Under the pieces are notes generated by a model that was not told where the DNA came from, did no database searches, and worked only from the letters and a program-made list of their open reading frames with translations. Below are positions 25,196 through 25,320 of a stretch of 64,000 nucleotides of DNA, piece by piece. Location of the stretch: sequence record LT603033. One strand, written 5' to 3'. The translations under genes were made by a program, and so were the position numbers. This DNA is from Escherichia phage vB_Eco_slurp01. Each line of letters starts with the position of its first letter. Position 1 is the stretch's first letter.

Positions 25196-25320
25196 TGAAA
25201 AAGGGATTGACTCCGGTCAGTCCCTTTGCTATTATATACGCATAGAAACAAATCAGCCCACCGGGTGCATAAATGTATCTATTATATGCTGGTGGCTAGT
25301 ACTGAAAACTATTTTTAAAA
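25196..25320 (+). repeat. Repeated intergenic module, copy 2 (hairpin 25200-25227 overlapping TTGACT-N17-TATTAT)
   Basis: Contains CCCACCGGGTGC and a Chi octamer at 25288. Confidence 0.7.

Follow-up and report, generated by a model that had tools for sequence, protein, structure and literature searches.

Four intergenic segments of the window (the 64,000-nucleotide stretch of Escherichia phage vB_Eco_slurp01 DNA, LT603033, analysed here) each contain a small hairpin, a promoter whose −35 hexamer lies within that hairpin, and a conserved motif further downstream. What does such a module do? A preliminary description had treated it as a unit of ~130 bp that could end upstream transcription and start a short non-coding transcript, or act as a structured insulator between transcription units. 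We compared the four modules with one another and with their counterparts in related jumbo phages. Coordinates of the features are collected in Table 1.

Source phage and early-region setting

The source phage belongs to the genus Asteriusvirus of the RaK2-like jumbo coliphages. Identity of the window to Asteriusvirus CRJP21 is 95.8%, and the 12-kb stretch around module 2 shows 92–97% identity to the Asteriusvirus jumbo phages CRJP21, BF17, G17, 121Q and PBECO4. Papers on the related phages CBB and PA5oct describe RaK2-like phages as relying on host RNA polymerase and on several classes of promoter (PMC5259590, PMC7318152), and as encoding a sigma-70-family factor (PMC5259590).

The module is present in 63 phage records across the RaK2-like clade, at five places per genome and at ten in records that write out both terminal repeats. 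This doubling places the modules in the terminal repeat. The direct terminal repeat of fEgEco12 measures 20,993 bp (PMC13070987), and the counterpart of module 2 is found at 13,479–13,620 of the fEgEco12 record. The four modules thus lie in the ~21 kb terminal-repeat early region.

Small + strand ORFs densely occupy the window between 13 and 32 kb. Pfam searches with tested flanking ORFs of this interval gave no match, save one weak kinase-like match for the ORF at 27815–28456. Module 3 lies directly 3' of this kinase-like ORF, a location that is kept in Munch. The region also contains ~30 copies of an ordinary early promoter, consisting of AAAAAGTACTTGCA, a spacer of 16–17 nt and TATAATGTTTTACAT; a 5' hairpin and a ribosome-binding site lie downstream of each copy.

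Several repeated sequences were observed in addition. The ordinary early promoters between 12866 and 31365 (~30 sites, repeat families D1–D4, D7 and D8) form a highly repeated cassette, composed of an A-rich UP region, AGTACTTGCA, the 16–17 nt spacer and TATAATGTTTTACAT, then a 5'-terminal hairpin (GGGGAGAAAUGGUUCUCCCC type) and a Shine–Dalgarno sequence; these repeats bound indels between related phages. Tandem paralogous genes with ~1.2 kb repeats and conserved 5' ends and promoters (D9, D11, D12) occupy 113–7472 on the − strand, and a family of small ORFs sharing a 55-nt conserved block (D5) occupies 33000–38800 on the + strand. Within the non-coding stretch at ~12900–14250, iteron-like tandem 8-bp repeats (NGAYGGCT, ~16 units, 13305–13432) adjoin three of the RNA-element units described below and a hairpin with a 14-bp stem (13049–13082). 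The distance to the left end inferred for the terminal repeat is ~1–2 kb, and the repeat region may function as an origin, in packaging or in control.

An 8-bp palindrome, CAGTACTG, has 55 sites in the window against 0.69 expected, including 12320, 12380, 12440, 12500, 13049, 13075, 15728, 17401, 23275 and 28568. It is found in the spacer of hairpin-less promoters of the modular type, just 5' of the −10 in many early promoters and shortly 3' of the RNA element, and four copies are set at exactly 60 bp spacing at 12320–12507. It may be a regulator-binding or modification site.

Predicted terminator hairpin and embedded promoter

All four copies of the module were recovered: TTGACTYCGGTCAG occurs without mismatch at 21599, 25207, 28475 and 30743 and at no other site of the window, and allowing up to two mismatches gives five sites, compared with 0.32 expected from shuffles. 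The modules are mutually 72–85% identical over ~170 nt. As had been described, each contains a 9-bp stem closed by a UCCG or UUCG loop and followed by a T-rich stretch (TTTGCTATTAT). One of the nine pairs is a U·G; copy 1 has the UUCG loop and the other three have UCCG. The arms are GGGAUUGAC/GUCAGUCCC (GUGGUUGAC/GUCAGCCAU in copy 1), and flanking A/U bases extend the stem to 12 pairs. The reported promoter TTGACT-N17-TATTAT has its TTGACT in the 5' arm and a 17-nt spacer, with the correction that the −10 of copy 3 is TAATAT. The two conserved motifs are present with altered letters, namely CCCACCGGGTGC and ATGTATCT in module 2 (25257) and CCCACAGGGTGC and GTGTATCT in the other three. An ordinary early promoter for the next gene follows each module, at 21722, 25326, 28608 and 30883, in agreement with the preliminary description.

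The ~130-bp module did not hold up as the conserved unit. Its hairpin is optional, being carried by 33 of 86 promoter-bearing motif instances in the clade and by 4 of 11 in the window, and the motif half also occurs without it, on both strands, bringing the total in the window to 11 units. The conserved unit is instead the embedded promoter (P1) plus an RNA element of ~50 transcribed nt, with or without the terminator hairpin.

The preliminary description had proposed that the copies be compared for compensatory changes. For this comparison, 21 hairpin–promoter sequences from the window, RaK2, CBB, GAP32, Munch and metagenomic relatives, representing at least five genera, were aligned. In this alignment 96% of cells were paired. 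Cells changed on both sides numbered 14, compared with 2.4 ± 1.3 in shuffles (0 of 500 shuffles as high), and the covariation score was 0.356 vs 0.204. The outer stem covaries freely (e.g. GGGA/UCCC, GUGG/CCAU, GAGG/CCUC, GUAC/GUAC). The inner stem is held by the −35 sequence TTGAC, and the bases opposite it show no changes other than wobble-compatible ones (U-G 17, U-A 2; U-A 13, U-G 8; G-C 14, G-U 6). Such wobble pairs are possible in the + strand RNA alone, which argues for selection on the sense transcript.

The hairpin has the attributes of a Rho-independent terminator, with a G+C-containing stem, a short loop and a U-rich tail on the transcribed strand. A terminator scan found the hairpins at 21592, 25200 and 30736; the tail of copy 3 (GCUAAUAU) fails the T count of the scan. 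In the G17 record the hairpins are annotated as ARNOLD terminators (−13.0), and the Munch record annotates one also. The hairpin thus behaves as a predicted sense-strand intrinsic RNA terminator. Interruption of the U-tract (UUUGCUAUUAU) may make termination incomplete. The suggestion that the module ends upstream transcription is in this respect sustained by the stem covariation and qualified by the tail; a role as insulator is compatible with the data.

Promoter statistics were compiled from 86 non-redundant promoter-bearing motif instances across the clade. The −35 of P1 is TTGACA in 40 and TTGACT in 35 of the 86, the spacer is 17 nt in 72, and the −10 is TATTAT in 36, CATAAT in 14 and TATACT or TATAAT in 19. 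With a TG in front of it, the −10 is of the extended type. Units without the hairpin always carry TTGACW-N17-(C/T)ATAAT upstream of the motif, on both strands. On the basis of this consensus and invariance, P1 is predicted to be a near-consensus extended −10 sigma-70 promoter.

Table 1. Coordinates of the modules, hairpin-less units and RNA elements in the window
Feature	Coordinates	Strand	Details
Module 1	21592–21699	+	hairpin 21592–21619; P1 21599–21627; 12-mer 21654–21665
Module 1 RNA element, long class	21632–21699	+	H1 UGAG-AGAUAG-CUCA; R1 60.9 bits
Module 2 predicted terminator hairpin	25200–25227	+	AAAGGGATTGAC-TCCG-GTCAGTCCCTTT; tail GCTATTATAT
Module 2 predicted promoter P1	25207–25235	+	TTGACT, 17 nt spacer, (TG)C-TATTAT; −35 within hairpin 5' arm
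Module 2 RNA element, short class	25234–25302	+	12-mer CCCACCGGGTGC 25257–25268, then ATGTATCT; R1 45.6 bits, E = 5e-8
Module 2 ordinary early promoter P3 of next gene	25326–25353	+	TTGCAT, 16 nt spacer, TATAAT; then 5'UTR hairpin, ribosome-binding site; repeat families D2–D4
Module 3	28468–28575	+	hairpin 28468–28495; P1 28475–28503 (−10 TAATAT); 12-mer 28530–28541
Module 3 RNA element	28508–28575	+	R1 61.1 bits
Module 4	30736–30838	+	hairpin 30736–30763; P1 30743–30771; 12-mer 30793–30804
Module 4 RNA element	30770–30838	+	R1 55.4 bits
Three units in non-coding stretch	13582–13898	both	− element 13651–13582
Non-coding-stretch + unit	P1 13717–13746; element 13750–13819	+	H3 hairpin 13779–13798, then TTTTTT
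Non-coding-stretch − unit	P1 13898–13871; element 13866–13797	−	
Convergent pair	15714–15886	both	+ P1 15714–15742, element 15747–15813; − P1 15886–15858, element 15859–15791
Class II free-standing unit	17292–17422	−	P1 17422–17394; element 17389–17320; predicted bidirectional terminator 17313–17293
Hairpin-less unit	23261–23363	+	P1 TTGACA, 17 nt spacer, CATAAT; element 23294–23363; R1 56.2 bits
R1 units, + strand	13750–13819, 15747–15813, 21632–21699, 23294–23363, 25234–25302, 28508–28575, 30770–30838	+	
R1 units, − strand	13582–13651, 13797–13866, 15791–15859, 17320–17389	−	
RNA-element sequence CCCACAGGGUGC			

RNA element: structure, distribution and arrangement

By comparative analysis, the first ~50 transcribed nt are shown to be a conserved RNA with a predicted structure. 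The element begins with a 5' hairpin (H1) of free stem and purine-rich loop, followed by a linker YUAR, the invariant 12-mer CCCAYNGGGUGC and then YRUCY. The 12-mer lies 21 or 26–28 nt 3' of the −10, in a constant orientation. H1 has a fixed place in the 60 long-class units, its 3' arm ending 4–5 nt before the 12-mer. Its loops of 6–7 nt (GAGAAA, AGAUAA, GCGAAA or AGAACAA) are conserved, and the stems comprise 29 different stem pairs. A stem of at least 4 bp at this fixed place is present in 77% of long-class units, compared with 21 ± 5% of shuffles (maximum 32%).

Two further helices can be drawn on the 12-mer. H2 (R-CCC-AYN-GGG-U) is a 4-bp triloop hairpin that is 98% paired; its closing pair is G-U in 35 and A-U in 34 units, and one unit has CCU/AGG. 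H2 is nearly invariant and gives almost no covariation signal. H3 pairs GGGUGC, across six nucleotides, with SYRUCY and is 90% paired, compared with 36–65% for slid partners. The 3' side of H3 is confined to Y-R-Y-Y-Y, and its support consists of one-sided, transition-type changes. H2 and H3 share the GGG and are therefore mutually exclusive.

Other features of the element were considered and rejected. H3 is followed by a U-run in ~10 of 85 units only (one in the window, Table 1), and it was discarded as a general terminator. Long-range pairing of UAUCU with either the H1 loop (AGAUA) or the 5' end of the RNA, tested as a pseudoknot or closing helix, gave a mean best helix of 4.48 bp, equal to the 4.48 ± 0.08 obtained when 5' and 3' parts were permuted between units. 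A mini-ORF (Met-Tyr-Leu-stop) with GGGUG as ribosome-binding site was also dismissed: a start codon at positions 5–7 past the motif is present in 45 of 85 units, the ORF ranges from 1 to >18 codons, and the features of a leader peptide are lacking. The case for a −10-like hexamer acting as a second promoter or as a sigma-dependent pause site was weak, with TAnnnT in 33% of units at the best offset.

Positions 5–6 of the 12-mer (21658–21659, 25261–25262, 28534–28535 and 30797–30798) differ from G17 and UE-S1 in all four modules. These two phages are >95% identical to the window phage, and the ten bases flanking positions 5–6 never differ, which suggests that these loop positions are a mutational hot spot or diversifying positions.

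To investigate the occurrence of the element, a covariance model (R1) was built from 75 units. R1 identified 11 units in the window, confined to the interval 13.58–30.84 kb, with E values from 1e-3 to 8e-12. A further search gave 92 matches in loci of RaK2, CBB, GAP32, 121Q, Munch, Serratia BF-like phages and metagenomic jumbo contigs, some sites being counted more than once where loci overlap; distinct units number 85 across RaK2, CBB, GAP32, Munch and relatives. No sequence resembling the element was found in E. coli genomes and plasmids. In bacterial genomes a 23-nt pattern had 70 matches in 596 Gb, compared with ~140 expected by a hand estimate from uniform base frequencies, and only two weak R1 matches resulted. 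The family is limited to this phage clade.

The units occur in several arrangements. In class I, which comprises the four reported copies, the order is terminator, P1, element, ordinary promoter and gene. These copies have no terminator between P1 and the gene, so a P1 transcript is expected to run on into the gene, and no discrete small RNA is predicted. Their RNA most likely forms the 5' leader of the operon that follows. About 30% of units are oriented against the flanking genes, some of them reaching a terminator and others lying in convergent pairs. In class II, units oriented in this way have a terminator 39–40 nt past the motif. At least nine examples were found, among them 17320–17422 on the − strand of the window, which is predicted to yield an RNA of ~100 nt. 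Class III consists of convergent pairs with overlapping 3' ends, two in the window and one or two in every other locus examined. Some units stand directly 5' of a gene as its 5'UTR, for example at the Munch HNH gene. The idea of a short non-coding transcript starting at the module thus fits the opposite-strand copies that reach terminators; the four hairpin copies for which it was put forward would rather produce leaders.

The hairpin-less unit at 23261 is contained in a 320-bp stretch (23257–23577) that is absent from G17 and UE-S1 and present in 121Q. We also observed a cluster of four GATC sites within ~35 bp (TTGATCAAAAAATGATCTGATCAATACTTGATCAA) at 23345–23410, overlapping a promoter with TTGATC, a 16-nt spacer and TATAAT; this cluster lies within the same stretch without counterpart in G17 and UE-S1. 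In other genera, convergent pairs flank a Fur-box-like palindrome (GAGAATGATAATCATTCTC or GATAATGATAATCATT), seen at ~8490–8560 of a RaK2 locus (L003), at ~3725–3745 of a Munch locus (L005) and also in L006, L009, L010, L022 and L026. No Fur-box-like palindrome was found in the 64-kb window.

Relation to known systems and candidate functions

The hairpin–promoter part resembles the PeSL cassettes of T4-like phages, for which promoter activity, terminator activity and inter-copy recombination have been shown experimentally and which include a subclass with the stem-loop over the −35 (PMC2839356, PMC4122927). Shared features are a strong, near-consensus sigma-70-type early promoter with an AT-rich upstream region (here TTGACT, 17 nt, TG-n-TATTAT, preceded by an A-run), a fused stem-loop terminator (here a 9–12 bp stem over the −35, 96% paired, with predicted termination), an intergenic position in plastic, ORFan-rich regions, and copies that lie at indel or replacement boundaries and exchange sequence. 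Homology breakpoints among the relatives fall at 21577, 25316 and 30828 of the window and at ordinary promoter repeats, and module 2 of 121Q contains a patch of 17–20 nt equal to the first transcribed bases of module 4 of the window. There are also differences. In PeSLs a Shine–Dalgarno sequence and start codon directly follow the promoter, whereas in all four copies here the ~50-nt structured RNA, a second promoter and a 5'UTR hairpin intervene. The promoter–RNA unit also occurs without a stem-loop and on the opposite strand, and the phages belong to the RaK2-like jumbo clade, not the Tevenvirinae. Terminator–promoter fusion is already a known kind, and these hairpins had been annotated as terminators before.

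With lambda nut, HK022 put and the RAT sites of BglG/LicT, the RNA element shares its promoter-proximal position, a small hairpin of free stem and purine-rich loop, two possible helices that exclude each other, and terminators downstream in the same early region. In contrast to those systems, there is no boxA, the loops are of 6–8 nt rather than GNRA-like pentaloops, genes are lacking downstream of about a third of copies, and no Rfam model matches. Neither the boxA consensus CGCUCUUA nor GCTCTT was found in any of the 85 transcribed units, so the element is not a nut site of the lambda type, H1 being loosely boxB-like; the RfaH ops core GGCGGTAG was likewise absent from all 85. The free-standing copies, with a predicted RNA of ~100 nt, are comparable to Hfq-type enterobacterial and phage small RNAs: transcription would start at a sigma-70 promoter of their own and end at a Rho-independent terminator, and the RNA would have a conserved 5' part and an A/U-rich stretch. 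They differ from these in being multi-copy (at least 11 per genome), with most copies fused to mRNAs as leaders. No complementary target for the RNA element was found.

A search of the whole window against Rfam 15 gave no match at gathering threshold, and nothing meaningful over the units at E ≤ 10. No tRNA or tmRNA genes were found. The highly expressed terminal-repeat RNAs ncRNA001 and ncRNA002 of PA5oct (PMC7318152) were considered as relatives and set aside, their sequences having neither the motif nor an R1 match. The motif is not described in the RaK2, CBB, fEgEco12 and PA5oct papers. By the measure of Rfam 15 and the papers on the RaK2-like clade, the promoter-coupled RNA family appears undescribed.

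We propose that the modules are terminator–restart cassettes giving rise to a family of early non-coding RNAs and leaders, the RNA product being functional; we assign this reading a probability of about 0.55. The sense-strand hairpin would stop transcription arriving from upstream early genes, and host RNA polymerase would restart at the extended −10 sigma-70 promoter built into the hairpin, as in the PeSL design. The first ~50 nt transcribed would then fold as a structured RNA, with either H2 or H3 formed. This RNA would be the functional part, made early and at high dose from ~11 strong promoters, and would take the form of a free-standing RNA of ~100 nt at some places and of the 5' leader of the next early operon at others. 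The terminator–restart reading is well supported by the sequence comparisons, as a prediction. The element is under RNA-level constraint and is present also where no gene lies downstream, which favours a function of the RNA product over a cis leader or a DNA site; the RNA probably acts on a protein or RNA partner, whether as recognition tag, decoy or regulator. More tentatively, the element may constitute a new phage RNA tag system, in which an early, clade-wide multi-copy RNA is recognised by a phage or host factor through the H1 loop and the CCCAYNGGGUGC hairpin and either reprograms host RNA polymerase, by a new class of nut/put-like processive antitermination, or acts as a high-dose decoy that neutralises a host RNA-binding protein or defence sensor in the course of takeover.

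A cis antitermination leader of the nut, put or RAT kind would account for an element that always stands immediately 3' of a strong promoter, and for the copies that are direct 5'UTRs of genes. RNA made from P1 would stay with its own polymerase, either by itself or together with a phage protein that binds H2 or the H1 loop, and allow it to pass the downstream terminators, which occur every 2–3.5 kb; polymerases from ordinary promoters would still stop at the hairpins. The free stem and conserved purine-rich loop of H1 are boxB-like, and the H2/H3 alternative is reminiscent of an antiterminator/terminator pair, with a U-run after H3 in ~10 of 85 copies. We nevertheless regard this as rather unlikely: H3 lacks a U-tract in most copies, none of the 85 units has boxA or ops, no N-, Q- or NusG-like protein was identified, and the ~30% of units that face against genes would have nothing downstream to express.

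The near-invariance of the 12-mer would also be expected of a DNA-level element without RNA function, whether an operator or pause site or a binding box or alternative −35 (like the T4 MotA box) used with a −10-like hexamer 11 nt downstream by polymerase modified by a phage sigma factor or activator. RaK2-like phages have a sigma-70-family factor and several promoter classes (PMC5259590), and TAnnnT begins 11 nt past GGGTGC in 33% of units and 13 nt past it in 27%. However, this hexamer is conserved no further than TAT, and in free-standing copies such a promoter would transcribe a terminator only. The base before CCC is A or G opposite a fixed U/T (G-U 35, A-U 34) and the changes in YRUCY are of wobble type, a pattern of RNA pairing rather than of a DNA palindrome, and the covariation of the H1 stem would be left unexplained; we consider a purely DNA-level role improbable. 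A plain PeSL-type cassette, providing promoter, terminator and recombination homology, with the transcribed stretch homogenised by gene conversion and having no RNA function, would fit the breakpoints at modules and promoter repeats, the repeats that bound indels, the 121Q patch identical to module 4 of the window and the PeSL recombination demonstrated by experiment in T4-like phages (PMC2839356). However, gene conversion confined to a single genome cannot produce an invariant, equally spaced 12-mer across genera of <30% nucleotide identity (Munch and Asteriusvirus fEgEco12 share ~29% in a published comparison; PMC13070987), in which the flanking stems and loops diverge freely, and copies without a downstream gene would be left unexplained. 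We consider a cassette devoid of RNA function improbable as well.

The early regions of RaK2-like phages span ~20 kb and consist almost entirely of unknown genes. The terminator–restart reading defines a compact regulatory grammar for them, made up of a predicted terminator with a built-in promoter, the ordinary early promoter and its 5' hairpin, and the conserved RNA, which would be expressed from at least 11 strong promoters per genome. The cassettes would be natural, portable terminator–promoter insulators, and they explain where gene cassettes swap between these phages. If the RNA indeed binds polymerase, a nuclease or a defence factor, it would represent a new mechanism of phage takeover.
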